A DNA stretch of 64,000 bases from Prochloron sp. (GTDB lineage Bacteria > Cyanobacteriota > Cyanobacteriia > Cyanobacteriales > Prochloraceae), in the NCBI GenBank assembly GCA_965198675.1, contig OZ240666.1, forward strand, positions 146,806-210,805, in the 5' to 3' direction. A program made the translations under genes and the position numbers. The first letter of the stretch is position 1. The number at the start of each line of letters is the position of its first letter. Shown piece after piece: positions 12,413 through 40,271 of the stretch. The notes beneath the pieces are model-generated. The model was not told where the DNA came from. It was given only the letters and a program-made list of their open reading frames with translations, and did no database searches.

Positions 12413-12991
12413 GTTTTCATGATATCATGGAAGTCTTAGTGACGCACCCACAGCCATCCTTCGGGTAGGCAGTGGGCAACGAGCGTCGCCCTTCGGGCGA
12501 GGAGAACTTCATTCGAGGTACTCGGAACTTTCCCCCGACTGCGTTTTATAGTGAGGTATGCGTCCCGCCCCACTTTCAATTCATTGTATCGTAGTTTTGA
12601 AAATCCGTCAATGAATTTTGATATCCGGCGCGGCATCTCCCCTTGGGGGGAGTAGAGGGGGGTTCCTCACACGCCAAAACTCGCGCCCACCGAGTAGGCG
12701 CAAAGGGACGCAATTACACCCCGACTGCGGTATAGCACCGTCTCCTTCCCATCATAAAGGCGTACTTTGCGTCTTTGCGTGACCAAATCAAAGATTATGG
12801 CGTGCGGCTCCTGCCGCCTTAGCTAAAAGGTCTTGTTTGAAGCAGCGCGCCGCCTTGCTGTTCCGTTCCGGATTAATTTTGAGTCTAGTCACCAAGTTGA
12901 GAAAGAAATTGGCAAAGTCGTGATATAGTTTCAATTTCATTCGAGGGTAATTTTTTCGTGAGAGAATAGACGAATAACTAGATAAACTCCA

Positions 12992-15202: not shown

Positions 15203-16552
15203 TTAACGACGCTTAGGTAAGAAAGCGATGGGATTTACCGCACCTCGTCCCTGGTGATGCAGCTCAAAATGGAGATGAGGACCGGTACTGTATCCCGTAC
15301 TGCCCATTTCCGAAATTTTTTGACCTTGCTGTACCTGTTGACCCTTGCTGACGAGAATCTTGCTATTGTGAGCATAGAGGGTCAGACTGCCATTGGGATG
15401 GCTTACTTTCACTAGGTTACCATAGCCGCCGTTATTCCAACCAGCACTAACCACTTCTCCGGGAGCAGCAGCGAAAATGGGCGTCCCAACAGGTGCAGCA
15501 ATATCAATACCTTTATGCATTCTTCCTCGACGGGGTCCGTAGCCAGAGGAGAGAACTCCCCGAGCTGGCCAATCAAAACCGTTAAATCGGGGAGGACTAT
15601 CGGGTAAATACTGTTCTGGAGAAGATAAGGGGGGCAGTTCCGGTGCTACTATTGCCCCTACAGGGAACTCCAAGTTGAGGTTGTAGGTTTCTACTTCCAC
15701 AGGATAAGTGGCCCAGGTTTCCGGTTCCAGGTTATCATTCTCCCTTGGTGCTTGAGCAACAGCGATCTGTTGGGAGGACTGCTGAGGCATTCTTTGGACA
15801 TCTGCCTTCAACTTTTCCACTGGTTCTGGTTCGGGCAAAAAATCCAGCTCCTGTTCTGCCGAGCTACTATCGGGAGTGGTTACCACGACAATCAATTCTT
15901 CTGGATCAGATTTTTGAGATGGTACTACAGGGAGGGTAATGCCTTCTATCAAACCTGTTTGAGAGGAATTGGTATTGGCAACTAAATGAGTACCAGGTAT
16001 TTTGAACTCTTGATCCACTTCAATCAAGTTGGGATCGGTGATCTTATTGGCTTGGATTAATTCTGCTAGAGAGACTCCATGACGGCGGGCAATGCTATTC
16101 AGGGTATCTCCTGGTTGGACGCGATAGACAGGATTCTGAGCAGGGGTTATGAGGATCGGTATTGCTGCGTAGTCTTGAATCTTTGAATCGGTTCTTGCTT
16201 CTGGGGCTAACTCATTAGCAGATTGTCCATTCCCTTTCAAGGAAGGAATTTTCAGGGTCTGTCCTGCTCTTATCTTGGTGCTGGGTTCAATGTTGTTGGC
16301 TATTGCGATGGCAGTTACGGACACTTCATATTGACGGGATACTGCCCAAAGGGTTTCCCCTCTCTTCACTTTGTGTTCTACTATAATGGTTTGGCCAACA
16401 GGATTCACTCTCTTGGTGAGCAATGGTGCTGTAGCCATTGCTGGCGATTGTTGGTTCAGGAGCAATATTCCGGCAGTTCCTATGGCCATGGTCAAGCTTA
16501 GGGCTATTTTTGCAGTTAGGGTTCTACCCATGGTTTCAGATTTCACAAACAA
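15203..16552 (-). CDS. LysM-domain M23 family metallopeptidase
   Basis: Signal-like N-terminus and two LysM repeats (HKVKRGETLWAVSRQY..., YRVQPGDTLNSIARRHGVS...). The C-terminal M23 motifs are HKGIDIAAPVGTPI and GSTGYSTGPHLHFE. The start may instead be 16546 or 16531. Confidence 0.85.
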   Translation of the reverse strand: MFVKSETMGRTLTAKIALSLTMAIGTAGILLLNQQSPAMATAPLLTKRVNPVGQTIIVEHKVKRGETLWAVSRQYEVSVTAIAIANNIEPSTKIRAGQTLKIPSLKGNGQSANELAPEARTDSKIQDYAAIPILITPAQNPVYRVQPGDTLNSIARRHGVSLAELIQANKITDPNLIEVDQEFKIPGTHLVANTNSSQTGLIEGITLPVVPSQKSDPEELIVVVTTPDSSSAEQELDFLPEPEPVEKLKADVQRMPQQSSQQIAVAQAPRENDNLEPETWATYPVEVETYNLNLEFPVGAIVAPELPPLSSPEQYLPDSPPRFNGFDWPARGVLSSGYGPRRGRMHKGIDIAAPVGTPIFAAAPGEVVSAGWNNGGYGNLVKVSHPNGSLTLYAHNSKILVSKGQQVQQGQKISEMGSTGYSTGPHLHFELHHQGRGAVNPIAFLPKRR

Positions 16553-16745
16553 CCTCCTAGCGTCTTAGTCTTGTTAGTAGCACAGTTTCTCTTTGGGGTA
16601 GTTGGCCACCGCCAAAGATGCATAGCTTAGATTATACTGGTTTTGACTAATTATGACAAATCTTTACATTTCCTTTTCTCTCTTCATGTCTTCTCTACTA
16701 GATTGATTGTGAAATTTCAAGCTTTTGTTACAAATCTTTAACTAA

Positions 16746-18122
16746 ATGCTCCTAACTATAACCACTACTCACCAACCAGCCACAGACTTAGGCTATTTGC
16801 TCCACAAGCACCCAGAGAGGTTTCAGTCCTTTGACCTCTCTTTTGGCAGGGCATTTGTTTTCTATCCAGAAGCAAGTCCTGAACGGTGTACTGCTGCTCT
16901 GATGCTAGACATGGACCCCATAAAGTTGGTCCGGAAGGAAGGGGCTACTATAGCACAATACGTCAATGACCGTCCCTATGTAGCTTCCTCTTTTCTGAGT
17001 GTGGCCATAGCCCAAGTTTTCAGTACTGCTTTAGCCGGACACTGTCATCATAAACCGGAACTGCCATCAACACCACTAAATTTAATCGCTAAACTGGCAG
17101 TATTACCCTGTAAGCAGGGGTCCGGTTTCCTTCGTCGTCTCTTTGAGCCATTAGGATACCAAATAACTGCAACGGGTCATCAAGAAGATGAAGCATTTCT
17201 CCAGTGGGGGAACAGTCCTTATTTTACCGTCCAACTGGAAGGATTGGTCACGTTACAGCAGTTACTAGAGCATCTTTATGTTCTGATTCCCGTTTTAGAT
17301 GCTCAAAAGCACTATTGGATCGGGGATGAGGAAGTGGAGAAATTGCTGCGTCGCGGGGAAAGTTGGTTGGGAAGTCATCCAGAACGGGAAAGGATCGCCC
17401 GTCGTTACCTCAAACAGCAAGGATATTTGGTGCGGAATGCTCTCACTCAGTTAACTGAGGAGACGATGGAAGAGGAAAAATTGGAACCCCCTCTCAGTCT
17501 CAACCAACAAAGACTGGAAACAGTTGTCGCTACTCTGAAGGAAGCAGGGGTTAGGAAAGTGCTGGACTTAGGTTGTGGGGAAGGGAAGCTGTTGCAGAAA
17601 CTGCTCCAAGAGGACAGTTTTACTAAGATAGTTGGGGTAGACGTATCTTGTCGCTGTTTGGAAATAGCTAAGAAACGTCTGAAACTAGACCGTTTACCAC
17701 CGTTACAGCAGGAACGGATTCAGTTATTACAGGGTTCCCTTACCTATGGTGATAAACGGTTCAAGGGTTACGATGGAGCAACGGTAGTGGAGGTGATAGA
17801 ACATTTAGATCCCTCACGACTCAGTGCCTTTGAAAAGGTTGTGTTTGCCCTTGCTCGACCAAAAACTATTGTTATTACTACCCCTAATCGGGAGTATAAT
17901 GTAAAATTGGAAAACTTACCTCGTAATTGTAACGGCGAGTCACAATCAGGGAAATTGCGTCATCCAGATCATCGTTTCGAGTGGACTCCCTCGGAGTTTC
18001 AAAGTTGGGCCAAATCTGTAGCTGAAAGGTTTGGCTATGAGGTGCAGTTTCAACCTATTGGGGAGTCTGACTCAGTTGTGGGGGCACCCACACAGATGGG
18101 GTTTTTCCTTTGTCAGGATTGA
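16746..18122 (+). CDS. hen1: 3'-terminal RNA ribose 2'-O-methyltransferase Hen1
   Basis: 458 aa. The N-terminal MLLTITTTHQPATDLGYLLHKHPERF is typical of bacterial Hen1. The C-terminal SAM methyltransferase carries VLDLGCGEGKLL and ATVVEVIEHLD. A Pnkp gene lies on the same strand downstream. Confidence 0.85.
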   Translation: MLLTITTTHQPATDLGYLLHKHPERFQSFDLSFGRAFVFYPEASPERCTAALMLDMDPIKLVRKEGATIAQYVNDRPYVASSFLSVAIAQVFSTALAGHCHHKPELPSTPLNLIAKLAVLPCKQGSGFLRRLFEPLGYQITATGHQEDEAFLQWGNSPYFTVQLEGLVTLQQLLEHLYVLIPVLDAQKHYWIGDEEVEKLLRRGESWLGSHPERERIARRYLKQQGYLVRNALTQLTEETMEEEKLEPPLSLNQQRLETVVATLKEAGVRKVLDLGCGEGKLLQKLLQEDSFTKIVGVDVSCRCLEIAKKRLKLDRLPPLQQERIQLLQGSLTYGDKRFKGYDGATVVEVIEHLDPSRLSAFEKVVFALARPKTIVITTPNREYNVKLENLPRNCNGESQSGKLRHPDHRFEWTPSEFQSWAKSVAERFGYEVQFQPIGESDSVVGAPTQMGFFLCQD

Positions 18123-18180
18123 AACACAATTTTGATTAAACTATTGTACAATGTAATCAGAGTAAGATTGAGGAGAGACG

Positions 18181-18498
18181 ATGGCAGTAAAACGTTGGAA
18201 CGATGAAATGCTCGATGGGTTAGCTACAAGCGTGACGGAGATGCGGGAGAGTATGACGGAGATGCGGGAGAGTATGACGGAGATGCGAGGCAGCATGACG
18301 GAGATGCGGGAGAGCATTTCGGAGGTAAGGGATAGTGTAGATGGTTTAAGAGTGACCGTTCAAGCATTGTTACAAGTAGCGGCTCAACATGAACGAGAAA
18401 TAGAGTTAACCAAACAGAGACAAGCAGAAAATGATGAGAGGTTTAATGTTTTGCTGGAAGAAGTACGCTATTTGATTCGAGGTCATCAGGGAGATTAG
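18181..18498 (+). CDS. Small coiled-coil protein, tandem paralog 1 (4 x TEMRES heptads)
   Basis: 105 aa with a GAGGAG Shine-Dalgarno sequence before the ATG. It is the first of four head-to-tail units. Confidence 0.5.
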   Translation: MAVKRWNDEMLDGLATSVTEMRESMTEMRESMTEMRGSMTEMRESISEVRDSVDGLRVTVQALLQVAAQHEREIELTKQRQAENDERFNVLLEEVRYLIRGHQGD

Positions 18499-18568
18499 AA
18501 AATCCAGGGTAATAGCAATGGGCACGAGGGTATTTACAAAGTAATCAGAGTAGGATTGAGGAGAGACA

Positions 18569-18823
18569 ATAGCAGTAAAACGTTGGAACGATGAAATGCT
18601 CGATGAGTTAGCTTCAAGCGTGACGGAGATGCGCGAGAGCATTACGGAGGTAAGGGATAGTGTAGATGGTTTAAGAGTGACCGCTCAAGCATTGTTACAA
18701 GTAGCGGCTCAACATGAACGAGAAATAGAGTTAACCAAACAGAGACAAGCAGAAAACGATGAGAGGTTTAATGTTTTGCTGGAAGAAGTACGCTATTTGA
18801 TTCGAGGTCATCAGGGAGATTAG
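18569..18823 (+). pseudogene. Small coiled-coil protein, tandem paralog 2 (start codon ATG to ATA)
   Basis: The unit is homologous to the others, but the position of the ATG reads ATA (18569-18571). The ORF track starts only at the internal Met (18596). Confidence 0.45.
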
Positions 18824-18893
18824 AAAATCCAGGGTAATAGCAATGGGCACGAGGGTATTTACAAAGTAATCAGAGTAGGATTGAGGAGAGACA

Positions 18894-19169
18894 ATGGCAG
18901 TAAAACGTTGGAACGATGAAATGCTCGATGAGTTAGCTTCAAGCGTGACGGAGATGCGCGAGAGCATTACGGAGATGCGGGAGAGCATTACGGAGGTAAG
19001 GGATAGTGTAGATGGTTTAAGAGTGACCGCTCAAGCATTGTTACAAGTAGCGGCTCAACATGAACGAGAAATAGAGTTAACCAAACAGAGACAAGCAGAA
19101 AATGATGAGAGGTTTAATGTTTTGCTGGAAGAAGTACGCTATTTGATTCGAGGTCATCAGGGAGATTAG
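18894..19169 (+). CDS. Small coiled-coil protein, tandem paralog 3 (2 heptads)
   Basis: 91 aa, near-identical to paralogs 2 and 4 except for one extra 21-nt repeat. Confidence 0.5.
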   Translation: MAVKRWNDEMLDELASSVTEMRESITEMRESITEVRDSVDGLRVTAQALLQVAAQHEREIELTKQRQAENDERFNVLLEEVRYLIRGHQGD

Positions 19170-19239
19170 AAAATCCAGGGTAATAGCAATGGGCACGAGG
19201 GTATTTACAAAGTAATCAGAGTAGGATTGAGGAGAGACA

Positions 19240-19494
19240 ATGGCAGTAAAACGTTGGAACGATGAAATGCTCGATGAGTTAGCTTCAAGCGTGACGGAGA
19301 TGCGCGAGAGCATTACGGAGGTAAGGGATAGTGTAGATGGTTTAAGAGTGACCGCTCAAGCATTGTTACAAGTAGCGGCTCAACATGAACGAGAAATAGA
19401 GTTAACCAAACAGAGACAAGCAGAAAACGATGAGAGGTTTAATGTTTTGCTGGAAGAAGTACGCTATTTGATTCAAGGTCATCAGGGAGATTAG
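19240..19494 (+). CDS. Small coiled-coil protein, tandem paralog 4 (1 heptad)
   Basis: 84 aa. The unit spacing to paralog 3 is 346 nt. Confidence 0.5.
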   Translation: MAVKRWNDEMLDELASSVTEMRESITEVRDSVDGLRVTAQALLQVAAQHEREIELTKQRQAENDERFNVLLEEVRYLIQGHQGD

Positions 19495-19575
19495 AAAATC
19501 CCACTCTGAAGTTGCATTATCCTCCTCAAAAGGATAATGTGAAATTATAAAATTTATCACCGTTGAGAAATAACT

Positions 19576-20808
19576 ATGGGCAAGCGCAAGGGCAAAACAA
19601 AAGGTAAGAAGAGGAGCAACCATTATGATTGTGCTCCCTATAGACAGGTTTTAAAGGACAATTTTATTCCCAAGCTCTTCCATGATATGGTTCCTCAAGT
19701 ACAGGAATGGTGCGAAGAGGTTGAAGGAAGATATCCAGATTTTGCTTTGGAGTTTAAGTTTAGTTATATGGTGTCTCGAAAAGCCAAACCAAAATCTAGG
19801 TTGAACCAGGACTGCTATACAATGGCATTTTGGCTCAAGCTGAAGCAACCTTTCCCTGATTTAATGGCATTAATAAATGAACACCGTGAGACTATTTTTG
19901 AAGCGATTCCTTTTTTGACCTATCTTGACTTGTATAGATATCACGGGGATGCCCATAGTTTGCCTTGGGACGATGTGAGCTGTTTTAGGGACTTACCAGT
20001 TTGGACTCCAAGTTACAAAGAAGAAGGTGCATGGTATGACTACGTGGATTATCCTGAGGAAGAAAATCCGATTCTAAGGATGTTTGAGCAATACCCCGTG
20101 TTTAATTTAGCAGATGCTTTGGCGGAATTTCGCAGTTCTGTTGAAGCAGGATTAATTGAGTCTTATAGCACTAGGATTGAAGAAAGAACTATGGGTAAGC
20201 GCAAGAAAAAAGGAAGGAAGCATGATTTTTATCTTCCCAGAACGTGGTTTTTTAAAGATAATGATATTCCCAATATATTATTGCATGACATGCTTCCTAA
20301 AGTCGAGCAATGGGAAGCAGAGGTTAACCGAAGATATCAATGTGATTTCGGGATTAAGTTTCGCTGTCTAGTGGAGGGTAAAAGACCGTTTCTGGATAAC
20401 TCCTATGACTATGAAATGGCATTTTGGCTGAAGCTGAGAAACCCTCTACCTTCTGATTTAATGGCATTAATGGATGACTACTGTGATATTATCTATGAAG
20501 AAATTCCCTTTTTGACCTATCTTGATATCTACAGATATGATAGCTACCCAGAGTGTTTGCCCTGGAAGAATGTGAGATGTTATGGGAATTTCCCAGATTA
20601 TGAGAAGTTGATTGAGGAGGAGGAATACTATGATTATGTGATTGATGAGGAGGAACCATGGAAAAACAAAAAACCATGGGAGGACTACTATAGTGAGGAA
20701 GATAATCCGATTCTAGTTTTGTTCGAGGAATACCCTGAATTTAATTTAGCAGATGCTTTGGCAGAATTTCGCAGTTCTGTTGAAGAAGAATTAATTGAGT
20801 CTTATTAA
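19576..20808 (+). CDS. Unknown protein made of two fused copies of a 205-aa module (basic MGKRKGK head, acidic tail)
   Basis: Residues 1-205 and 206-410 are paralogous. Both begin MGKRK.. and both end NLADALAEFRSSVE..LIESY. The second module starts at the internal ATG at 20191. Confidence 0.5.
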   Translation: MGKRKGKTKGKKRSNHYDCAPYRQVLKDNFIPKLFHDMVPQVQEWCEEVEGRYPDFALEFKFSYMVSRKAKPKSRLNQDCYTMAFWLKLKQPFPDLMALINEHRETIFEAIPFLTYLDLYRYHGDAHSLPWDDVSCFRDLPVWTPSYKEEGAWYDYVDYPEEENPILRMFEQYPVFNLADALAEFRSSVEAGLIESYSTRIEERTMGKRKKKGRKHDFYLPRTWFFKDNDIPNILLHDMLPKVEQWEAEVNRRYQCDFGIKFRCLVEGKRPFLDNSYDYEMAFWLKLRNPLPSDLMALMDDYCDIIYEEIPFLTYLDIYRYDSYPECLPWKNVRCYGNFPDYEKLIEEEEYYDYVIDEEEPWKNKKPWEDYYSEEDNPILVLFEEYPEFNLADALAEFRSSVEEELIESY

Positions 20809-20917
20809 GGCGACCCCGGCTTTGCCGGGATCCGCTACGGGGCGCGCCGGAAATTGCATTATCTTTCTGAAAAGGATAATGTACAATTATAACACTTATC
20901 ACCGTTGAGGAATAACT

Positions 20918-21544
20918 ATGGGCAAGCGCAGAGGTAAGAAAAAATGAGAAAAGTGGTTCAAGCGTCATGGTTGGGAATTTCCCAGGAATTGGTTTTTTAA
21001 GGACAATTTTATTCCCCCGATACTTTCAGAAATGCTTCCTCTAATCCAAAAATGGCGCGAAGAGGTTAACCGAAGATATCTATGTGATTTAGGGGTTAAG
21101 TTTCGCTGTCTAGTGGAGGGAAAAAGACAGTTTTTGGATAACTCCTATGAAATGGCATTTTGGCTGGAGCTGAGGGACCCTCCACTTTCTGATTTAGTGG
21201 AATTAATGAATGACTACTGTGATATCTATGACGCAATTCCCTTTTTGACCTATCTTGACTTGTACAGATATGATGACGACGCCGATTATTTGCCTTGGGA
21301 GAATGTGAGATGTTATGGGAACTTCCCAGAGTATGAGAAGTTGATTGAGGAGGAGGAAGACTATGATTATGTGATTGATGAGGAGGAACCACGGAACAAC
21401 AAAAAACCATGGGAGGAATACTATAGTGAGGAAGATAATCCGATTCTAGTTTTGTTCGAGGAATGCCCCGAGTTTAATTGGGCAGGTGCTTTGGCAGAAT
21501 TTCGCAGTTCTATGGAAGAAGAATTAATTGAGGTTGATGATTAA
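20918..21544 (+). pseudogene. Third copy of the 205-aa module, with in-frame TGA at codon 10
   Basis: It reads ATGGGCAAGCGCAGAGGTAAGAAAAAATGA and then continues in the same frame (EKWFKRHGWEFPRNWFFKDNFIPPILSEMLP...) into ORF 21032..21544. Its stop codon (21542-21544) directly abuts the pnkp ATG at 21545. Confidence 0.5.
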
Positions 21545-22214
21545 ATGGATATCAAAATTCCCGAACTCTCCCTTATTGTCCTCATTGGTGTTTCCGGTTC
21601 CGGTAAATCTACTTTTGCTCGAAAACACTTCCAACCCACGGAGGTTATTTCCTCAGATACTTGTCGAGGGTTGGTATCGGACGATGAAACGGACCAGTCC
21701 GCTACTAAAGATGCTTTTGAGGTTCTCCATTTTATCGCCGCCAAACGTTTAGCTGGGCGTCGTTTGACCGTAATAGACGCTACTAATGTGAAAGCAGAAG
21801 ACAGGAAACCGCTGTTAAAGTTGGCTAAGCAATACCACTTTTTTAGTGTGGCGATCGCCTTTAACTTACCACCAAAACTCTGTCAGGAACGGAACAAAAA
21901 CCGCTCCAACCGCCAGTTTAGTTCTCAGGTAGTCCACCGTCAGAGTCAATATTTGCGTCGGGGGTTAAATAAGCTGAAACGGGAAGGGTTCCGCTACCAT
22001 TATATCCTCTCTTCTGTAGAAGGAATAGATAAAGTTTCCATTCATCGTCAGCCACTTGGTCATAATTTACGTCAGGAACATGGTCCTTTTGATATTATCG
22101 GGGACATTCACGGTTGCTATGATGAACTGGAAACTCTACTGCAAAACCTAGGATACCAAATAACTGCTCATCCCGACCCAAGTTCTGGTTGGTATGGCCC
22201 AATATATCATCACC

Positions 22215-22567
22215 TTTTAGTTACCAGTGACCAGTAATCACGTACCATGGTAGCAGCTCAACCTTGGGTTTGAGGCCCCCACCTTTCAGTTACCAGTGAC
22301 CTTGTACCATGATAGTGACCAGTAATCACGTACCATGGTAGCAGCTCAACCTTGGGTTTGAGGCCCCCACCACTTATTTGGTGGCAAGCCACTTATTGGT
22401 GGAAGGTAACTGGTAACTGCCTGACTGCCCCGGTTGGCATGAGCAGGACTGGTAACTGGTAACTGGTCACTGCCTGACTGCCCCGGTTGGCATGAGCAGG
22501 ACTGGTAACTGGTAACTGGTCACTGGTAACTGGTAACTGGTCACTGGTAACTGGTCACTGTTTTACC
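22215..22567. mobile_element. 353-bp non-autonomous repeat insertion (MITE-like, STRR-rich) inside pnkp
   Basis: Deleting exactly 22215-22567 joins ...YHH to PEGRKAVFLGDLVDRGP in frame. The termini are inverted (GTTACCAGTGACC / GGTCACTGGTAAC). The inside holds two copies of an approximately 86-bp left unit, two copies of an approximately 62-bp right unit and CTGGTAA/CTGGTCA heptamer runs. Confidence 0.65.
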
Positions 22568-23323
22568 CAGAGGGGCGTAAAGCAGTCTTCTTGGGGGATT
22601 TAGTGGACAGGGGACCAAAAATCTTGGCTACCCTTAAGTTAGTGCGGAATATGGTGGAATTGGGCACTGCTTTGTGCGTTCCCGGGAACCATGATATCAA
22701 GTTGGTGCGGAAGCTGGAAGGCAGAAATGTGCAAGTTAAGCACGGTTTAGCCCAGACTTTAGCAGAGTTGGAACCCCTTTCAGAAGAGTTTAAGCAGTCT
22801 ATTGCTGCTTTCCTTGACGGTCTCGTCAGTCACTACGTCCTAGACCAGGGTAAATTAGTAGTAGCCCATGCAGGAATGAAAGAGTCCATGCAGGGTAGGG
22901 GTTCGGGACAAGTGCGCAGCTTTGCCCTCTATGGGGAAACAACTGGGGAAATTGACCAGTTTGGTTTACCAGTGCGCTATGAGTGGGCCAAAGAATATCG
23001 GGGTCAAGCTCTGGTTGTGTACGGTCATACCCCTGTTCCCGAACCAGAATGGCTCAATAATACCATCGATATCGATACGGGTTGCGTTTTTGGGGGGAAG
23101 TTGACTGCACTGCGCTATCCGGAAAAGGAACTGGTTTCTGTTGCTGCTGGGAAAACCTATTGTGAACCAGTGAAGCCTTTTTTACCTAATGTCGGCAGAA
23201 GGCTCACACCATAATCTTCGACCTGCTAAGGTCTGGCTATACCTTAGCAGGGGTGTGAGATGAATGACGACGCCGGGATTTATATGCTAGAATAAATCAA
23301 ATGGGCAGGCAATGGATAAGACC

Positions 23324-24572
23324 ATGTTGATCTACGAGATGAAACTGGAAGGAACTAAAGAACAGTACCCACCCCCCTTGCCCCCCTCCCGGGAGGGGGG
23401 TTGGGGGGTGGGTAGCTATTCGTACTGGGCGTTTTATTCGTAACAGTATCATCAGAGCGTGGATTGACAGAGAAGTGAAGAGTCGCAACTCAGCCTACAA
23501 ATATTGCAAGATTTTGGCAGATAATCCAGAGTTCCCTTGGGCAAAGCAGTTAAACTCGCAAGCAAGACAAGCCCACGCCGAAAGAACATGGGCTGCAATC
23601 GAGCGCTTCTTTTTAAACTGCAAGGCAAAAATTCAAGGAAAAAAGGGGTATCCAAAGTTTAAAAAGTATCAGGTCAGGGCGTCGGTGGAGTACAAAACTT
23701 CCGGTTGGAAACTGTCCGAAGATCGTAAGTATTTGACTTTTTCTGACAAGTTCCAAGCAGGTAAATTTAGACTTTGGGGTAGCCGTGACCTTCACTATTA
23801 TCAACTCAACCAGATTAAACGAGTGCGAGTAGTGAGGAGGCATGATGGCTATTACGCGCAATTTGTAATTAACCACTCCAGGAGGGAAACTAAGGAACTA
23901 TCCAACAAACAATCAGGGCTAGATGTTGGTTTAAACCATTTCTACACAGACTCCCATGGCGATACAGTCGATAATCCAAGGTTTTTAAGAAAAGGTGAAC
24001 GGCGTATTAAAAAGCTACAAAGACGTTTATCTCGAACTAAAAAGGGCAGTAGTAACCGCTCTAAAGCTAGGAATCGCTTAGGTAGAGCGCATCGATCGGT
24101 TTCCCGCAAACGTAACGATTGGGTATGTAAGTTGGCCCAGCGCGTCATACGGTCTAACGACTTAGTAGCGATTGAAAACCTAACAGTGCGTAATATGGTG
24201 AGAAACCACTGTTTAGCTAAATCTATTAACGATGCAGCTTGGTATAAATTCCGAGAATGGCTAGAGTATTTTGGGACCATTTATGGGGTGAAAGTGATTG
24301 CCATTGACCCCAAATATACTTCTCAAAACTGTTCTAATTGTGGGAAAAAGGTGACCAAAACATTGAGCACCAGAACTCACAATTGTCTTCATTGCGGTTA
24401 TATAGCTGATCGGGATGAGAACGCTGCCATCAATATCCTGTCTGCTGCATTGGAACAATTAAAAACTACCCTGGGGCACAGGGAAAGTAACGCCTCTGGA
24501 GAGACTCCCCTCTGCCTAGTAGTGGAAACACCGCTGAGTAAGGGAACTCGCAGAAAGAGGAAATCCTCATAG
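23324..24572 (+). pseudogene. tnpB: TnpB (IS605 OrfB) RNA-guided nuclease, N-terminus frameshifted by a 46-nt palindromic mini-insertion
   Basis: MLIYEMKLEGTKEQY (frame 2) is followed by 46 nt of C/G-run palindrome (23369-23414). The protein resumes as AIRTGRFIRNSIIRAWID... (frame 0). The C-terminal zinc finger and RuvC are present (CSNCGKKV...HNCLHCGYIADRDENAAINIL). Confidence 0.75.
23369..23414. repeat. C/G-run palindromic mini-element (CCCACCCCCC..CCCTCCCGGGAGGGGGG..GGGGGGTGGG)
   Basis: It is a near-perfect palindrome. Related copies lie at 58602-58643, about 59196-59245, about 12636-12665, about 31262-31310 and about 39222-39275. Confidence 0.7.
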
Positions 24573-26065
24573 CAATATGGGAATCCCCCGCTATACTGCG
24601 TAGCAGTTAGCGGCGGGAGGATGTCAATTACCACCCAACAGCAGTTGGACGATGTGTTAGAGTTGGAAGACTTGTTAGTTAAAAAGACCATTGAGACCAG
24701 ACTGGGACCCAGGGTAACTATTGGGGAAGAAAATGCTAGGACTGCCTTGGAAGTCATGAGTCGATTTGCAGTTAATCCCAAGTGGCTGATATATTTACCC
24801 TCAACCATGTCTCCCTCGGAAACTTCCAGTAAACCGGGTTTATTGGAATATCCCACAGAAGCTTTTGCTTATTATAGTCGTCTGGGTGTCTCTCAAGTAA
24901 TTTGCGAAGAAAAGCATATGGGTTCCCGGGGGATAGTTATAGTGTGTCGGCATGAAGAGGCAGCACAACGGCGATTTGGGGTAGTTGACGAAGGGATTGG
25001 CATTTGCTATAGTCGTACAGGAAGGCGTTTCTTTAAGAATCCAAAGCTGGAATAGGAAGTACTAACTCAATTACAAAGAGCACTTACAAGAGGGGGATTT
25101 TGGCAAGAGTTTGAGACGGACTGGATTTGTTTGGACTGCGAAATAATGCCTTGGTCTGTGAAAGCTGAGGAACTGATTCGAGAACAATATGCAGCAGTGG
25201 GGGTAGCTGCACGGGTTGCTCTGTCTTCTGCTGTTTCTTTGCTCCAACAAGGTGCGGTGCGGGGTTTAAATGTGGGGGAAATTTTAACTCGCTATCAGGA
25301 GAAGGAGCAATTAGCCCAACGATACGTACAAGCATACCGTCCTTATTGTTGGGAAGTGAATGGTATTAGGGACTTAAAGTTAGCTCCGTTCCACCTGTTA
25401 GCCACAGAAGGGGCAGTTTACGGGGATAGGGACCATCTCTGGCATCTGAATATATTAGGGCAAATCTGTCGTACTGACCCCTTGTTAATGACACCAACTG
25501 AGTATAAAGTAGTGGATACCAAAAATCCAGATTCGGAAGCAGAAGCAATTAAGTGGTGGAAGGAACTTACTGCTGCGGGGGGAGAAGGAATGGTAGTTAA
25601 ACCTTTGTCTTTTATAGCTAAAAGCAAACGGGGGTTAATGCAACCAGCATTGAAATGTCGCGGTCAGGAATATTTGCGGATTATCTATGGTTTGGAATAT
25701 ACTTTGTCAGAGAATTTGGAGCGATTGCGTCAGAGAGGGTTATCTAGGAAGCGGAGTCTAGCATTGAAAGAGTTTTGTTTGGGTATGGAAGCTTTGGAGC
25801 GATTTGTGGAACGGGAACCTTTGCGTCGGGTTCATGAATGTGTCTTTGCTATTCTCGCATTGGAGAGTGAACCTGTGGATCCTCGTTTGTAGGGTGGGCA
25901 TTGCCCACCAATAACCACCCGTACCCTCGTCTCCCCGCCCGCGAATGAATTGCGGACTACCTTATAAAACACCGAGCGGGTTGAATATTGAGTTGCGTTC
26001 AAACAGATAATTCTGTAATGGCGCAAGGTTTGCGCCCTCTTTAAACTATCCCACTGTAGCGACAA

Positions 26066-26914
26066 ATGACAAAAAAGAAAGCCGATATCAGCACGAAAAG
26101 ATTAATTAGTTTATCTCCAAATGAGTGGATACAATGGGTCATGCAAAGAACCGAATTTGAAGCGAAAGAGATTATTTCCTCTGAGTTTCAGTGGGTGAGT
26201 CGAGAAGGAGACGTTTTAGTTAAAGCATATAGTGACGATTTGGGGGAGTTTTTAATTCTCAATGAGTTACAATTGAGGTATACTAAAAAAGTACCTCGAC
26301 GCATGAGAGCGTATGCAGCTTTGGCGGAGGAAAAATATGAACTTCCCGTTTATCCAGTTTTGATTAATATACTGGAAGCGTCTTCAGAAACCATTACTAG
26401 TTCCTTCCAGAGTAATTTTGCTGGTTTGAGGGCGATCCAAGAGTATCGAGTAATAAACTTGTGGGAAGTAGACGTAGATATAGTCTTCCAGCGCAATTTA
26501 TCTACATTGCTGCCATTAGTGCCGATCCTGAAAGGAGGAGGGAAAGAAAAAGTCATCAAACGTGCTTTAAGAGAGTTACGAGTCCAAAAACAACCAGGTG
26601 AGCTAGAATCAATATTAGGGTTCTTTGCTACCTACGTTTTAGACACTAGTTTAGTTCGAGAAATTCTGAGGTTCGATATGGCAATTTTAGAACAATCCCC
26701 TTTGTATCGAGAGATAGTCTCCAAGAGCAAACAAGAAGGCATAGCGATCGGCGAACAGCGTGGTATTCAGCAAGTCGCTACTAATATGCTCCGCATGGGT
26801 ATATCAAGGGAGCAAGTCTCTGAGGCGACAGGAATCTCTGTTGAGCAAGTGGCTCGATTACTTGAGAAATCCTCAGTATCTGAGGGGCGCGCACCGCGTA
26901 GCGGATCTCTTTGA
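26066..26914 (+). CDS. Rpn-family recombination-promoting nuclease / putative transposase (PD-(D/E)XK with DUF4351-like tail), intact copy
   Basis: 282 aa. The MTKKKADISTKRLISLSP... head and the ...LEQSPLYREIV...GIQQVATNMLRMGISREQVSEATGISVEQVARLL tail are typical of the cyanobacterial Rpn/transposase_31-like family. Confidence 0.65.
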   Translation: MTKKKADISTKRLISLSPNEWIQWVMQRTEFEAKEIISSEFQWVSREGDVLVKAYSDDLGEFLILNELQLRYTKKVPRRMRAYAALAEEKYELPVYPVLINILEASSETITSSFQSNFAGLRAIQEYRVINLWEVDVDIVFQRNLSTLLPLVPILKGGGKEKVIKRALRELRVQKQPGELESILGFFATYVLDTSLVREILRFDMAILEQSPLYREIVSKSKQEGIAIGEQRGIQQVATNMLRMGISREQVSEATGISVEQVARLLEKSSVSEGRAPRSGSL

Positions 26915-26961
26915 GATCGCTCTGGTTAGAAACGGAGCGGTTAATCTCTATATCAAGGTTT

Positions 26962-27020
26962 GGACGGTGCGTTGCCATTGCGAAGCAAAGCGTAAGCAAC
27001 CGCCTTTGGCGTCCGCACCC
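26962..27020. repeat. Short copy of the composite GACGGTGCGTTGCCATTGCGAAGC...GGCGTCCGCACC mini-element
   Basis: It shares its ends and core with 57666-57771 and 59966-60091 but has single sub-repeats. It is duplicated at 27926-27984. Confidence 0.6.
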
Positions 27021-27265
27021 TACGCAGGAGGTCAACTTGCGTCGGGTTCATGAATGTGTGTTTGCTATTCTTGCATTGAAAAGCGAACCTGTGGATCCTC
27101 GTTTGTAGGGTGGGCATTGCCCACCAATAACCGCTCGCCCGCGAATGAATTGATTGCTCTCCTTATTAAACCCCTTCAGGATTTCATATTTAGTTGCGTT
27201 CAAACATAGAAGTAGGAGCGCCACCATCTTTGCGCCCTCTTTAAATTATCCCACTATACCGACAA

Positions 27266-27878
27266 ATGACCAAAAAGAAAGCCGATATCAGCACGAAACG
27301 ATTAATTAGTTTTGATTAATATACTGGAAGCGTCTTCAGAAACGATTGCTAGTTCCTTCCAGAGTAATTTTGCTGGTTTGAGGGTGATCCAAGAGTATCG
27401 AGTAATAAACTTGTGGGAAGTAGACGTAGATATAGTCTTCCAGCGCAATTTATCTACATTGCTACCATTAGTGCCGATCCTCAAAGGAGGAGGAGAAGAA
27501 CAAGTCATCAGACGTGCTTTAGGAGAGTTACGAGTTCAAAAACAACCAAGGGAGTTAGAATCAATATTAGGGTTCTTTGCTACCTACGTTTTAGACACTA
27601 GTTTAGTTCGAGAAATTCTGAGGTTCGATATGGCAATTTTAGAACAATCCCCTTTGTATCGAGAGATAGTCTCCAAGAGCGAAAAGCGAGGTATCGCGAT
27701 CGGCGAACAGCGAGGAGAAAAGCGAGGCATTCAACGAGTCGCTACTAATATGCTCCGCATGGGTATGACAAGGGAGCAAGTCTCTGAGGCGACAGGAATC
27801 TCTGTTGAGCAAGTTGCTCGATTACTTGAGAAATCCTCAGTATCTGAGGGGCGCGCACCGCGTAGCGGATCTCTTTGA
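27266..27878 (+). pseudogene. Rpn-family gene, copy 2, with internal out-of-frame deletion of about 250 bp
   Basis: It has the same first 16 codons as copy 1, then jumps from ...LIS to VLINILEAS at an AGTTT microhomology. The frame is lost (MTKKKADISTKRLISFD*). Confidence 0.65.
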
Positions 27879-28248
27879 GATCGCTCTGGTTAGAAACGGA
27901 GCCGTTAATCTCTATATCAAGGTTTGGACGGTGCGTTGCCATTGCGAAGCAAAGCGTAAGCAACCGCCTTTGGCGTCCGCACCCTACGCAGGAGGTCAAC
28001 TTGCGTCGGGTTCATGAATGTGTGTTTGCTATTCTTGCATTGGAGAGTGAACCTGTGGATCCTCGTTTGTAGGGTGGGCATTGCCCACCAAGCAACGCGC
28101 CCTTTATAAAACCCCGACCGGGTTTCAATTACTCCCCTCCTGGGGTTGAAACCCCAGGCTATTCCCTACTCTTCTCATGATTTTTTACCCCAACAGTGCC
28201 CCTACATTTTGCCGATCGTATCAATTCTCTTGTAGGCATCGCCCACCA

Positions 28249-28455
28249 ATGCTACTATCACCAGTACTCACCAACCAGCCACAGACTTAAGCTATTTGCT
28301 CCACAAGCACCCAGAGAGGTTTCAGTTCTTGCGAAGAAGAGAATAGGGATCCGGATACGGTGGAAGAGAAAAATTAGAACACCCTCTCAGTCTCAACGAA
28401 CAGCCGACGGTCAACAGTTGTCGCTACCCTCAAGGAAGCAGGGGTTAAGGAAGTG
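28249..28455 (+). pseudogene. hen1 relic (two fragments of a second hen1 copy)
   Basis: 28249-28330 aligns to hen1 16746-16830, including the ATG, with a 1-nt deletion. 28355-28455 aligns to hen1 about 17463-17570. The approximately 630 bp in between and the whole methyltransferase domain are missing. Confidence 0.7.
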
Positions 28456-29241
28456 CTAGACTTGATCTTGGTGACGTTCTGGATGACCGAACCATGATCT
28501 ATGGCGATCGTCATACATTTGATTCAAGACTTGTTCCACATCATTCATCGTTCCGTCAGCGTCAACCCATCCACCTTCTAGATCGGGGAAGTCAAGCCGA
28601 CAGTTTTCACACTTTTTACCATCGTAAAATTTGATTGGGCACCAAAATGATTCAACGTTGCGTAACATTTCGGCACCGAGGGAGTACACACCCGTCATCC
28701 AGTCACAGTAAAGACACCAAATCAGATCGTGTCCGACCAATCCTTCAAACTTGTGACGACTAACATTGACCCAATCACTGTGCTTGTATTTGGGAAACCC
28801 AAGTAACCAAATTAGCATTGGATAGACGAAAACCTCTGAGAACCGGAGCAGAAAAAATACGGGCACGATAATCGAGGTCACCCACAACGCCAAGTGATTA
28901 CGCCACCACCCAATGCGCTGGCTATGGAAACGGGCGATACGGGAGCCAGGTGCAACATTGCGGTTCAGGAACTCGTGGTAAAAAATCCATAACTGCATCG
29001 CCAAGACCTGGGCAAGAAGGCTTGCCACAATGCCCCCCCATCGCACAGTTAGACCACCTATCAACCAAGGAACCAATATTATAAAGGATAATAACCAGTC
29101 CAGCATCGGGGCTTTGGTACATGCATCGACAGCATCTTTTCCCCATGTCCCGAGCGATGGCATTGAGGTCAGCAGCAAGAACAGCAAAACCTCGAAGGTC
29201 AAGATGGCTAAAAAAACTGTTGTGTATACAATCATTATCAA
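28456..29241 (-). CDS. Polytopic membrane protein with Cys-rich C-terminal domain, unknown function
   Basis: 261 aa with about 6 hydrophobic helices, then WCLYCDW...FWCPIKFYDGKKCENCRLDF. No family recognised. Confidence 0.45.
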   Translation of the reverse strand: MIMIVYTTVFLAILTFEVLLFLLLTSMPSLGTWGKDAVDACTKAPMLDWLLSFIILVPWLIGGLTVRWGGIVASLLAQVLAMQLWIFYHEFLNRNVAPGSRIARFHSQRIGWWRNHLALWVTSIIVPVFFLLRFSEVFVYPMLIWLLGFPKYKHSDWVNVSRHKFEGLVGHDLIWCLYCDWMTGVYSLGAEMLRNVESFWCPIKFYDGKKCENCRLDFPDLEGGWVDADGTMNDVEQVLNQMYDDRHRSWFGHPERHQDQV

Positions 29242-29590
29242 ATTTATTCTGAATACGAGAACCCAGTTCTGACAGTTTCATTTCTCCCGCTCAATCCCGA
29301 TGGGCTTTGAGGCTGACATTACGATCATGGGAGGGCATATTTTTCTTACATGTTGGGGTTTTTAAATTCCACACTAATCCTAACCAAAGTAACTGATTAA
29401 ACATAGCGAAACTCCGAACCAAACTAAGTGAATCCTGACCACACGGCGAATAGAGCGACCAGATGGATAGCGACATCTATGATATGGAGATAGGTGATCG
29501 GTAATATACTCATGATTCTTTTTTTATTATAGCAACAGTCATCATCGTTAGGACACGATGTCCCGCCGGTCTGGCGCAGGTTGTGCGCCC

Positions 29591-30721
29591 CTACTTAGTC
29601 ATCAAATATTGTCCGTTGCCAATATACGTACCGTCCCAGATAGCAAAATTGCGCGAGAACCACAGCAAATACAGCCGCCAGATCCTACGAAACTTAGCAT
29701 AGTCACAACCATAATCTAATGTACTGATCTCTGCTTGATATTTGTCAAAGTTATTCAACCAGCTCGCAAATGTTCGAGAATAATTCATTCCATTTATATA
29801 CCACCGTTTAATGGTTTTTAAATCTTGGTTATGGGCAGGAATAGCATCATAATTCCACAAACGACCATGGGAAAAAATATATTTATGTGTAAAAACGCTA
29901 GATATATTATTTGTAGCACAAATTGTCATAATATGCGTAGAAACATAACCATCATCCTTTAAGAAAGATGTTAATTTTGAGAATGACTTAGTTAAATTAC
30001 CAATATGCTCAAAAACACCCAATGAGAAAATTACGTCAAATTTTTGGTCGAATTCTATATCATTAAAATCCTGCTCGTATAACATAAATCGAGGCGAGCT
30101 GAGGTAACTTTCCTGATCCTGAATTCTCCTGCGGATGTACTTGCATTGCTCCCCGCTTAAATTTAAGCCTGTAAACTCGATATTTGGAAATTTGGAGAGA
30201 ATGTAATTTGCCACACAACCTCAACCACAACCAATTTCTAGAATGCGATCGCCGTCTTTGATACCCACTTTCTCAATCATATCATCGATCATTTGGGTTT
30301 GAGCCTGTTCAAGGTTAAGCGCCCCTTTTTCCCAAAGACCAACAGTATATTTAGGATAAATGAGTGGTCCGTCACCTAACATCAGACTAAACATCTTTTG
30401 AGGAAGGTTGTACTGAATTTTCATTAACTCATGAGATCCCTCGGCAAGATGCTCCGTTTCCTCTAGTACCCATTCATAAGGGACAAACAACGAAGGTAAA
30501 AACTTGATCAATATAGGCATACAGGTATCCATAATATCTTGCAAGACAAAATTAGGTATTTCTACACCATTGATATAGACTTCTACAATTGCCAGTTGTA
30601 ATGCATTAAACCCCTCAATCAATCCTCGGCTTAATTGAAAGCCAAGTGGGCTTTTATGTGTTAGATCACCGACCAGTGGTATATGTTTATCAAAATCCTG
30701 TAGCATAGATATAAAAGCCAT
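29591..30721 (-). pseudogene. Cyclopropane-fatty-acyl-phospholipid synthase-family SAM methyltransferase with in-frame TGA
   Basis: ORFs 30221..30721 and 29591..30214 are in the same frame. The junction reads RILEIGCG-TGA-GCVANY, so the stop (30221-30223) replaces the Trp of the GCGWG SAM-binding motif. Confidence 0.7.
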
Positions 30722-30895
30722 CAGTTACACTCTAATTTTTTTCATTCATCTTGTCAAAATTTAGCTTCCTAATGGGACTTAAACAAAATTTAAGCCCAAA
30801 CATCGTTTAAGTCCCGCTAGTCCGCTATTCTTTTCTCAGTTCTGAACAGTATTTGGGGTAACGCCAACAGCGTAACGCACCAACAGCAGTTGAGG

Positions 30896-31171
30896 TTAGC
30901 CTCCAGCAACTGCTGGTACAATGCTAACTTCATCCCCATCTTTTAATGCTGTTTCCTTCCCTTGAAGAAAGCGAATGTCCTCTTCATTAACATAGAAATT
31001 AACAAAGCGACGCAGTTGACCTTTTTCATCGCACAACCGAGATTTTATCCCGGGAAAATCACTTTCTAAGGTTGAAACTAATTGTTCAATGCTAGCAACT
31101 TCGGAGCATTGCACAGTTGCTTCTTTGGTGAATTTTTGCAGGGTACTTGGAACTAAAACTTTGACAGCCAT
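30896..31171 (-). CDS. MoaD/ThiS-family ubiquitin-like sulfur-carrier protein
   Basis: 91 aa ending ...[14 protein letters not shown] with a C-terminal Gly-Gly. Confidence 0.75.
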
Positions 31172-31310
31172 TTTGTTCTTGATTATAGGTTTTTGATTGT
31201 GGTATGGGCGGAGTGAACAAGGGTGGGCGCAAGCCTTGCGCCCCTACACACACTGCCTTTCCTTTCTCCCCCCTTGATAAGGGGGGTGCCCGATAGGGCG
31301 GGGGGATCTA

Positions 31311-33978: not shown

Positions 33979-35511
33979 ATGTTAAGGTTTAAATCTGAAT
34001 TAGACCTGTACCTGCGATCGCGCTTTACTCTCATTGTGGTAGTAACCCCAGAAGAAGAGAGAGTACTGCAAGTAATAACAAGTGTATGCCAACAAAGTAA
34101 TCGTACTTGTCTTACCTGGGATGTAGCTGATGGTTTTCAATCTCTCACGGAAAGGCGAGGTTCTGTACCCACAGCGCGGGATCCCCTGACTGCTTTAGAA
34201 CAGATTGATAAATCTGATAATGATACTTTATTTGTCCTGAAGGATTTTCACGACTGTTGGACCAATCCTCAATGCAAACGGAAACTCCGCAGTGTGGCTC
34301 AACGACTCAAGTATAGCAAAAAGTCCATAGTGGTGACAACCCCTTTGAGTAAAATTCCCGAAGAGTTAAAAGATGAAGTAGTGGTAATAGAGTTTCCTCT
34401 CCCTCAAGGGGCTGAGTTAGAAGCAGTACTGAACAAGTTAGGAAAAACACCGGGGGTGAAGTTTAACCTCACCACCTTGGGACGAGAAAAACTGGTACAA
34501 TCTGCTTTAGGTTTGACTGCATCCCAAGGACAACGGGTATTTGCTAAGGCGATCGTGAGTAACGGAGTTTTAGATGATCGAGATATAGACTTGGTCATGG
34601 AGGAGAAAAAGCAAATTATTCGAGAGAGTCGAGCGTTGGAGTTTTACACTCAACAAGAAACCCCCGATCATGTAGGAGGTTTGGGAGTATTAAAAGAGTG
34701 GTTGCGGTTGCGAGAAAGAGCATTTAGTCAAGAAGCTTCCGCTTATGGACTTCCCGCACCAAAAGGGATGGCTCTTATTGGTATTCCTGGTACAGGGAAG
34801 AGTTTAACTGCTAAAATGATAGGTGGTTTGTGGCGTTTACCCTTGTTGCGTTTGGATCTGGGAGCATTATTTGGTAGTTTAGTAGGAGAGTCTGAGGAGC
34901 GAGCGAGACAAGCGTTGGGGTTAGCAGAAACTGTAGCACCTTGTGTCTTGTGGATTGATGAAATGGAAAAAGGTTTTGCTTCTGGGGGTTTGGACGGTGG
35001 TACAAGTCAGCGAGTTTTTGCTACCATTCTGACTTGGATGCAAGAAAAGACTGTTCCCTGTTTTGTGGTAGCCACAGCCAATAATATTGACAGTTTACCT
35101 CCAGAACTGCTGCGCAAAGGACGGTTTGATGAGATTTTCTTTCTGGATTTGCCTACTATAGCAGAGCGAGAGGAGATTTTTACTGTTCATTTACACAAGC
35201 GGAATCGATTGTCTGAAGACTATAACATTAAGAGGTTAGCTTCTGAGTCTGAGGGTTATGTGGGAGCAGAAATTGAACAGGCTATTATTGAGGCTATGTA
35301 TGAGGGTTTCAATCAGAATCGGGAGTTTACTACAGAGGATATTTCCCATGGACTGAAACGTCAAGTACCCCTATCCGTATCTCAAAAGGAGAAGATTGAA
35401 GCTTTACGGAATTGGTTACGGGAAGGAAGGGCACAGTCTGCTTCTTTTGCACAAGTTCAGGAAGCAGAGGAACGGTTTGTACCTATCCAATTGGATCTCT
35501 CCAAATCGTAG
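33979..35511 (+). CDS. AAA+ ATPase, Ycf46-like
   Basis: The N-terminal [30 protein letters not shown]...FVLKDFH pattern is that of Ycf46. The C-terminal AAA module has Walker [13 protein letters not shown] and Walker [12 protein letters not shown]. The 5' extension of the ORF track (33883) is translated from a repeat. Confidence 0.7.
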
Positions 35512-35651
35512 GGTGGGCATTGCCCACCGCACCGCCCGAACCGCTAGTAGGGGCTGGGTTTTCCCGCCCGCATCGCCCACCAAATCCTTACGTAGCATCG
35601 CCCACCAAATCCGTCACCCGTCACCCCGAACCCAATCAAAGCCTAAAGAAC

Positions 35652-37615: not shown

Positions 37616-37811
37616 TTTTGTCATTGGATGTTTGAGGAAAGATATGAGATAATTTTAACCGTAGATAGATACAAATGTTCCTGGCAATAAATAACTAAGT
37701 TCTTCTAAAATATTTAGAAATTATCTTATAGCAGTGCGTAAAAAGGCAATCTTTTCCCACACCCCCGCGCAGCGCTATACAATTAGTACAAACAGCATAT
37801 TGCCAAAGAAC

Positions 37812-39215: not shown

Positions 39216-39509
39216 TCGGATCCCCCCCAGCCCACCAAAATATCGGGGGGTGCCCTTAGGGCGGGGGGATTTTACGTGAATAAGACGATGGGATGATAGG
39301 ATAAGGGCGGCGTTTCACGATCGCCAGCAAATCTCCTCCCCCATTCTCGCTGGATCGCCCTATAAATCTTGTAGTCCTGAAAGGACTTTTCTTGTTAGCA
39401 CGCAATTTATTCCCGTGCGGGTCTTAAATAAACCCTGTTAGGGTTCCCATTGTTGGGTTTCGTGCCTCAACCCAACCTACATAGAATTAGCTAAATAAAG
39501 ATAAAAGTC

Positions 39510-40220: not shown

Positions 40221-40271
40221 TAACTGGTAACTGGTAACTGGTAACTGGTAACTGAAAGAAGGAGTTAAAAT

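Follow-up and report, generated by a model that had tools for sequence, protein, structure and literature searches.

The closest described relatives of the locus reported here are the Pnkp-Hen1 RNA-repair cassettes of Clostridium thermocellum and Anabaena variabilis, studied by the Shuman and Huang laboratories, in which the hen1 and pnkp open reading frames (ORFs) are adjacent and co-oriented, ligation by Pnkp depends on the N-terminal domain of Hen1, and the complex has the composition (Pnkp)2(Hen1)2 (PMC3675462). In the Pnkp1-Rnl-Hen1 system of Capnocytophaga gingivalis (PMC4411300), Hen1 has only about 20% identity with Hen1 of the classical type and is paired with separate Pnkp1 and Rnl genes. 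The biological role of bacterial Pnkp-Hen1 has so far been inferred mainly from in-vitro work. We analysed a hen1-pnkp locus in a stretch of 64,000 nucleotides from Prochloron sp. (contig OZ240666.1, positions 146,806 to 210,805; hereafter the window, in which all positions are counted unless another genome is named), which belongs to the same families as the C. thermocellum and A. variabilis cassette at the equivalog level (TIGR04074 for Hen1 and TIGR04075 for Pnkp). It is in our view highly probable that this is a Hen1-Pnkp cassette in its native order, lost by strain-specific decay in a Prochloron-like symbiotic cyanobacterium. The native layout would have been hen1, lineage-specific small ORFs and pnkp, and pnkp was struck by three independent events, namely the insertion of an element resembling a miniature inverted-repeat transposable element (MITE), the insertion of a tnpB-only insertion sequence (IS) with loss of 24 bp of target, and a CAG to TAG change.

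The pnkp gene is dead in this genome, and its three independent lesions are all absent from relatives. Lesion boundaries were set by comparison with the intact pnkp orthologue of one of these relatives (L082). Four collinear matches to TIGR04075 are found across the gene (Table 1), none of which reaches the cutoff of 750 bits alone, and no single polypeptide combines the three Pnkp domains with more than 750 bits. The kinase, phosphatase and ligase domains are all still recognisable (AAA_33, Metallophos and PNKP_ligase, respectively), and the reconstructed protein is 94% identical to the intact 858-aa orthologue. The MITE-like insertion disrupts the frame and is found in no relative; its termini are inverted heptamers (ACTGGTA/C), it contains internal duplications of 58 nt and 53 nt, and related heptamer arrays are present at other sites in the window. 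It resembles the heptamer-repeat, MITE-like cyanobacterial elements of the short tandemly repeated repetitive (STRR) type in its heptamer inverted termini.

The IS element lies in the linker between the phosphatase and ligase domains, and 24 bp of pnkp that are kept in relatives are gone at the insertion. Its TnpB is identified by NF040570 (258.9 bits), OrfB_IS605 (PF01385) and the Cas12f1-like TNB/zinc-ribbon domain (PF07282), and it resembles the tnpB-only elements of the IS200/IS605 family in these domains, in its placement 3' of TTAC without duplication of the target, and in the hairpins near both ends (the junctions read CCTTTTTTAC, element, TTACC, and the left hairpin is cctgctaagg...ccttagcagg). 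It differs from IS200/IS605 in having no tnpA (the ORF map of 23186-24627 contains no ORF of the Y1 transposase kind) and in its frameshifted tnpB (ATG at 23324, stop at 24572), the first ~17 codons of which are put out of frame by a GC-rich palindrome of ~46 nt (CCCCCCTTGCCCCCCTCCCGGGAGGGGGGTTGGGGGG, ~23368-23413) with no second copy in the window. The element is probably immobile now. An earlier note made from the letters of the window (the original prediction) had already named the insertion in the phosphatase domain, the IS605/tnpB element between phosphatase and ligase, and the in-frame TAG in the ligase, and all three hold when the junctions and the codon are compared with those of the relatives. 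In addition, the window Pnkp carries four unique changes (W172G, N173H, P499S and V607I) at sites at least 96% conserved among 111 homologues.

The hen1 gene is intact, as had been claimed. Its product matches TIGR04074 over its full length (residues 2-454; 674.2 bits against a cutoff of 340) and Hen1_L (PF12623), the Pnkp-ligase-binding N-terminal domain, across residues 1-236 (364.6 bits). It can be aligned end to end with solved structures, namely 4DQZ (N-terminal domain, residues 1-228) and 3JWH (the methyltransferase of Anabaena Hen1), and the S-adenosylmethionine (SAM) and metal-binding motifs LDLGCG, EVIEHLD and KLRH.DHRFEW are kept in alignment with 3JWH. The predicted layout is thus an N-terminal Pnkp-ligase-activating domain followed by a C-terminal 2'-O-methyltransferase. 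Compared with the SP5CPC1-type strains (see below), Hen1 has an 18-bp in-frame deletion in the linker and a 24-bp in-frame insertion encoding RNCNGESQ just before GKLRHPDHRFEW / KLRH, adjoining the metal-binding RH.DH motif. The same 8-aa insertion is seen, in an ungapped alignment, in the hen1 remnant of the sister genome L096. With an intact hen1 ORF beside a broken pnkp, it was also right to say that hen1 has no functional neighbouring partner. Judging from the established biochemistry (PMC3675462), RNA healing and sealing would be abolished in this strain, since ligation needs the ligase bound to the Hen1 N-terminus, end healing needs the kinase and the phosphatase, and these domains are fragmented; the ligase itself is split, with its adenylylation motif apart from the remaining domain.

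Table 1. Features of the hen1-pnkp locus, in window coordinates.
Feature	Position	Strand	Description	Evidence
hen1	16746-18122	+	Single 458-aa ORF, intact	TIGR04074 and PF12623 matches, structure alignment
Coiled-coil ORFs	18181-19494	+	Four tandem copies of 105, 75, 91 and 84 aa	
410-aa ORF	19576-20808	+	Two fused ~200-aa orphan modules	
Third orphan module, 170 aa	21032-21544	+	One copy more than relatives	
pnkp fragment 1	21545-22213	+	Kinase and start of phosphatase, profile positions 1-211	TIGR04075 330 bits, AAA_33; tblastn 100% to reconstruction
MITE-like insertion	22214-22566	none	353 bp, within phosphatase domain	
pnkp fragment 2	22567-23185	+	Rest of phosphatase, profile positions 228-427	TIGR04075 371 bits, Metallophos
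IS200/IS605-family element	23186-24627	+	1,442 bp, phosphatase-ligase linker	
pnkp fragment 3	24628-25052	+	Start of ligase including EEKHMGS adenylylation motif, profile positions 432-571	TIGR04075 210 bits, PNKP_ligase 168 bits
Nonsense codon TAG	25053-25055	+	In frame, ligase domain; CAG (Gln) in L082 and L096	
pnkp fragment 4	25056-25892	+	Remainder of ligase and native stop	ORF 25131-25892 = profile positions 599-851; TIGR04075 393 bits, PNKP_ligase 382 bits
Rpn-like block	25912-28000	+	2,089 bp, two tandem units, inserted after the real pnkp stop	
Third pnkp 3'-end copy	28001-28091	+	Last 23 codons, stop 28070-28072, palindrome	
hen1 relic	28249-28463	+	ATG, 4-nt deletion, codons 4-29, then ~233-275	

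The window Hen1 falls in a 90%-identical protein cluster, the contigs of which come from Lamellodysidea sponge metagenomes, and one Pnkp of these contigs bears the source name 'Prochloron sp. SP5CPC1', a metagenome-assembled genome (MAG) described in PMC7313196. The closest relatives are therefore found here and not among the Nostocales, where the original prediction had placed the DNA. At 93-99% identity, they have an intact hen1 and an intact pnkp in the order of the window. In L082 and L085 this order is a LysM peptidase (minus strand), hen1, one coiled-coil ORF, ORFs of 186 aa and 167 aa, and an 858-aa pnkp, followed by a 257-aa minus-strand gene, a CMAS-like methyltransferase and ThiS. 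The order in L084 is the same but with two coiled-coil ORFs, and the contigs L086 and L087 start inside the block and show its downstream part, with an intact 858-aa pnkp. The split hen1 of L084 was considered as a pseudogene and rejected, the split being a 10-N scaffold gap. As the LysM flank on the left and the coiled-coil flank on the right of hen1 are kept in every relative covering hen1, the intact hen1 of the window appears to be in its native position.

The order of the two genes was also followed in a wider set, a Hen1 scan of species-representative genomes which gave 80 loci, each at most 62% identical. In 67 of them hen1 is followed by pnkp on the same strand, with a gap of at most 150 bp in 46 and of 183-8161 bp in 21, while pnkp was not found in the available flanks of nine. 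The reverse order is seen in four loci, all from gammaproteobacterial MAGs. Upstream hen1 is the rule in every cyanobacterial locus where pnkp was found, and the nearest Pnkp outside the lineage (P0124, 70% identity) has hen1 11 bp upstream. Gene order across these loci thus indicates that hen1 upstream of pnkp, at times with genes between them, is the normal arrangement, and together with the close relatives it speaks against the ancestral order of pnkp then hen1 that had been proposed for the window.

The genome closest to the window is L096 (a 4,718,108-bp contig, ERZ22157276 ctg13830c), the flanks of which are 98-99.7% identical to it, and the two have in common the four coiled-coil ORFs, the 410-aa fused module and the Rpn-like block. 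In L096 it is pnkp that is intact (858 aa, without the MITE-like insertion or the IS, and with CAG at the position of the TAG), whereas hen1 has suffered a deletion of 995 bp, equivalent to 16706-17700 of the window, by which the start codon, the 40 nt before it and codons 1-318 are gone. The deletion junction consists of a 17-nt filler and contains no Ns, and the 165-aa remnant matches no Pfam family. The L096 Pnkp has three unique changes (G226R, G565S and R860C) at sites at least 95% conserved among the 111 homologues. Comparison of the two genomes indicates that hen1 and pnkp were inactivated independently, and reciprocally, in sister strains.

The ratio of non-synonymous to synonymous substitution rates (dN/dS) between the window and L082 is 0.29 for hen1 and 0.17-0.18 for pnkp, and for pnkp it is 0.25 against L096, where the proportion of synonymous differences (pS) is 0.034. 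Values this low (0.17-0.29) suggest that purifying selection acted on both genes during most of the time since they diverged and that the inactivations are recent, and they disfavour a long-standing, clade-wide relaxation of selection. The intact hen1 is then most likely a leftover still to decay and not a repurposed enzyme, since the sister strain has lost its own hen1, and the losses suggest that the Hen1-Pnkp system is dispensable in this symbiotic niche. Several points weigh against this reading. Derived changes at conserved sites are not in excess in Hen1 (four in the window lineage against seven in that of L082) and both of its indels are in frame, which also fits continued selection on hen1. 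The view covers 64 kb of a 4.74-Mb genome, elsewhere in which a second pnkp or an Rnl/Pnkp1 pair may be present. The three lesions are those of an assembled sequence alone, and a metagenome scan with the C-terminal fragment of Pnkp returned distant relatives only (52-64% identity), so that they were not independently confirmed. Lastly, for the origin of a hen1 relic found downstream of pnkp, its breakpoint at the ATG is predicted by no simple duplication model.

Alternatively, hen1 may have been kept for a Pnkp-independent function, as a predicted stand-alone 2'-O-methyltransferase acting on RNA 3' ends, a reading that we consider unlikely. The ORF has stayed open through in-frame indels of 24 bp and 18 bp, the SAM and metal-binding motifs are retained, and besides the dN/dS of 0.29, conserved sites have undergone fewer derived changes than in strains whose pnkp is intact. 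Moreover, the methyltransferase domain of Hen1 is autonomous in vitro (PMC3675462), and four loci of the wider set, from Planctomycetota and Chamaesiphon (L015, L035, L037 and L039), have a classical-type hen1 without pnkp in at least 5 kb of flank on each side. However, two thirds of hen1 are missing from the closest sister strain, which makes the gene dispensable in the lineage, the 8-aa insertion adjoins the RH.DH motif, and with a recent death of pnkp an intact hen1 is expected by chance alone. It is similarly doubtful that the sister strains, taken as natural reciprocal knockouts (hen1 without pnkp in the window, pnkp without hen1 in L096, and both intact in the SP5CPC1-type strains), reveal a Hen1 that may here act alone as an RNA 3'-end 2'-O-methyltransferase; if true, such an activity would reveal a Pnkp-independent role for bacterial Hen1. 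In any case, the lineage offers both-intact, hen1-only and pnkp-only strains as material for asking what each protein does alone.

We regard it as quite improbable that repair still works because a functional pnkp, or a Pnkp1 and Rnl pair, elsewhere in the genome is paired with the hen1 of the window. Only 64 kb of the 4.74-Mb contig is in view, and Pnkp1-Rnl-Hen1 systems in which hen1 is far from its partners do exist (PMC4411300). The Hen1 of the window is nevertheless of the classical, Pnkp-associated type (TIGR04074 with Hen1_L), and no hit among the top 120 for Pnkp (identity of 64% or more) comes from the 4,740,233-bp contig of the window, which is a weak argument since distant copies would not be among them.

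The small ORFs that would belong to the native layout of the decayed cassette account for the distance between the two genes, which have the same orientation, follow the usual order and are separated by 3,422 bp in the window and by 1,655 bp in relatives. Where the original prediction read the 3.4-kb gap as a rearrangement, it is occupied by lineage-specific ORFs tandemly expanded from 1.65 kb, tandem duplication having led to four coiled-coil ORFs and three orphan modules. The coiled-coil ORFs form a tandem repeat (period 325, 3.7 copies, 94% matches) with one copy in L082, two in L084 and four in the window and L096. The encoded protein consists of TEMRE(S/G)M heptad repeats, and its family, with 702 homologues, is widespread in cyanobacteria and not tied to hen1; homologues are common in Aphanizomenon, Dolichospermum, Microcystis and Nostoc, with lengths that are often multiples of 7 aa apart (84, 91, 98, 105, 112 and 119). 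The orphan module has a Lys/Arg-rich N-terminus (MGKRKKKGRK) and an acidic C-terminus, and only three representatives were found in 1.84 billion proteins (P0243-P0245). The 410-aa fusion corresponds to the 186-aa and 167-aa ORFs of L082, which are split there by a TGA that is TGG in the window, and the stops separating tandem modules vary by strain. The TAA of the third module directly abuts the ATG of pnkp (21545), likewise in L082. The most distant member of the family (52% identity, L094 10001-10603) lies among HemolysinCabind genes with neither hen1 nor pnkp nearby. Pfam and NCBIfam scans gave no match for the orphan module and generic coiled-coil noise only for the coiled-coil ORF, and the AlphaFold model of the module was unusable, its mean predicted local distance difference test (pLDDT) score being 42. 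Neither family looks like a dedicated repair accessory.

Downstream of pnkp, the features listed in the original prediction are present, but the Rpn-like block had been missed, as had the amplification of the small ORFs. The block contains a full-length gene (26066-26914) and a 5'-truncated one (27312-27878), and is common to the window and L096 and absent from the SP5CPC1-type relatives. Since L096 has it together with an intact pnkp, the block itself is no lesion of the pnkp coding sequence. The Rpn-like gene scores 41.7 bits against TIGR01784, under the cutoff of 52.1, and the L096 copies match HTH_Rpn_C (PF27070), weakly in the case of the 261-aa copy. The last 91 bp of pnkp are present three times (25821-25911, 27037-27127 and 28001-28091); the first Rpn-like unit terminates in the second of these copies, and the third runs into the original downstream flank, 98.6-99.5% identical to relatives. 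Each unit at pnkp thus has the same 91-bp direct repeat, derived from the target, at its boundaries. Between the two units the divergence is ~6%, more than separates the strains over this part of the locus, and dispersed Rpn-like copies are found at 36964-37625 and 54434-54729. Directly 3' of the pnkp stop, and preceding the block, is the palindrome GGTGGGCATTGCCCACC. It occurs at 25894-25910, 27110-27126, 28074-28090 and 35511-35527, 3' of the stops of unrelated genes (pnkp and, with its stop at 35509, an AAA ATPase), and its half-site variants, GCATCGCCCACCAA, are seen at rearrangement junctions. Four copies of the coiled-coil ORF, three of the orphan module and two of the Rpn-like unit show that the region is prone to tandem duplication.

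The hen1 relic aligns with hen1 in two parts, 28254-28330 with 16755-16831 (94.8% identity) and 28353-28463 with 17459-17569 (84.8% identity), separated by an internal deletion of ~0.6 kb, and it is truncated 3' at a minus-strand ORF (28456-29241). The gutted hen1 copy of the original prediction is therefore real, but its distance of 177 bp applies to the stop of the third pnkp 3'-end copy only; the real stop (25892) is 2.36 kb away. In the relatives L082/L085, L084, L086 and L087, the relic lies ~180 bp after the stop of an intact pnkp. As the same relic stands beside an intact gene in these four relative contigs, it arose before these strains diverged, is older than the decay of pnkp and unconnected with it, and is an older partial duplicate common to the SP5CPC1-type strains, at odds with the idea that a duplication or rearrangement of the locus left hen1 an orphan. 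A fragment that lies next to a broken gene may have nothing to do with the breakage. The hen1 homology of the relic begins at most 2 nt from the ATG, with a dispersed repeat, GGCATCGCCCACCAA, just upstream, the palindromic relative of which is the GGTGGGCATTGCCCACC that also marks the junction of the Rpn-like block. The relic may plausibly have arisen by recombination at this dispersed repeat, tandem duplication being common in the region. The GGCAT(T/C)GCCCACCAA motifs around the 157-bp spacer before the relic were considered as a target-site duplication and rejected, the motif being a dispersed repeat that is also found at 35516-35608 and 40134 and follows the stop at 35509 in its palindromic form. 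An Rfam scan of 16000-29500 gave nothing at or near a gathering score.

The relic sits just 3' of a pnkp 3' end and starts exactly at its own ATG, as could be expected if the ancestor had pnkp followed by hen1, with the downstream hen1 decayed and the upstream one a relocated duplicate. This was the model of the original prediction, and the order it requires does occur in the four gammaproteobacterial MAG loci. We nonetheless give it little credence, because hen1 is upstream in all pnkp-bearing cyanobacterial loci and in the nearest outside homologues, both flanks of hen1 are conserved in the relatives that cover it, and the model would have to assume one more switch in gene order, relative to other cyanobacteria; the breakpoint at the ATG is no easier to explain with one copy as the original than with the other, and hence does not support the model. 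Least credible is an origin of any of the lesions in faulty assembly or sequencing. They are seen in the assembly alone, and one C to T substitution could be erroneous. Against this, the IS is marked by a canonical TTAC target and end hairpins and is itself decayed internally, the termini of the MITE-like insert are structured and heptamer arrays related to it recur in the window, and the three lesions differ in type and are accompanied by window-unique substitutions at conserved sites.

Further observations concern the surroundings of the cassette. Between 15200 and 34700 the identity of the window to L082/L084 is a mosaic, with ~93% over LysM and hen1, 85-89% over the modules and the 5' end of pnkp, 95-96% over the rest of pnkp, 98.6-99.5% over 28001-31248, and 90-93.5% after 31311, which suggests recombination between strains. 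Damage specific to this strain is also found outside the cassette. The CMAS-like SAM methyltransferase gene (29591-30721, minus strand) has a TGG to TGA change in its GCGWG motif (30221-30223), the protein being intact (376 aa) in relatives that are 99% identical, and all six codon differences from L084 are protein-changing (five replacements and the nonsense change). An insertion of 6.9 kb (34742-41651), absent from L084 and L086, carries two WD40-repeat ORFs and part of another Rpn-like gene (36931-37506, minus strand), along with heptamer arrays and GCATCGCCCACCAA motifs. In L096, 1.65 kb (L096 positions 17222-18872) with a 293-aa coiled-coil/membrane ORF stand in place of the third pnkp 3'-end copy, the relic, the 261-aa gene and the CMAS-like gene, and ~180 bp of different sequence (L096 positions 12467-12650) lie between the last module and the ATG of pnkp.

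Read as a cassette in native order lost by strain-specific decay, the locus is a decayed instance of a known system, and the reciprocal loss in the sister strain is a detail of ordinary pseudogenisation driven by mobile elements. Like the Hen1 of C. gingivalis, that of the window has no adjacent classical Pnkp gene; unlike it, the window Hen1 is itself classical and its partner is broken. Another comparison is with two filamentous heterocyst-forming cyanobacteria, Scytonematopsis (L002) and Nostoc sp. T09 (L041), where the order is hen1, an AAA_33 kinase, a Thg1-like gene and pnkp, in what looks like a four-gene variant of the RNA-repair cassette. There too, hen1 is upstream of pnkp with intervening co-oriented genes, over ~1.5 kb (5685-6954 in L002 and 11485-12688 in L041), but there they encode RNA-repair-related proteins (a kinase and a Thg1-like 3'-5' polymerase), whereas the intervening genes of the window belong to the coiled-coil and orphan families and have no homology to them. 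With the C. thermocellum and A. variabilis cassette the window shares the co-oriented genes, the upstream position of hen1, and a Hen1 both halves of which can be aligned to solved structures. It differs from it in the four-fragment pnkp pseudogene, in the 3.4-kb gap with six small ORFs of two unrelated families, in the downstream relic and the Rpn-like block after pnkp, and in the 8-aa insertion beside the metal-binding motif of Hen1.

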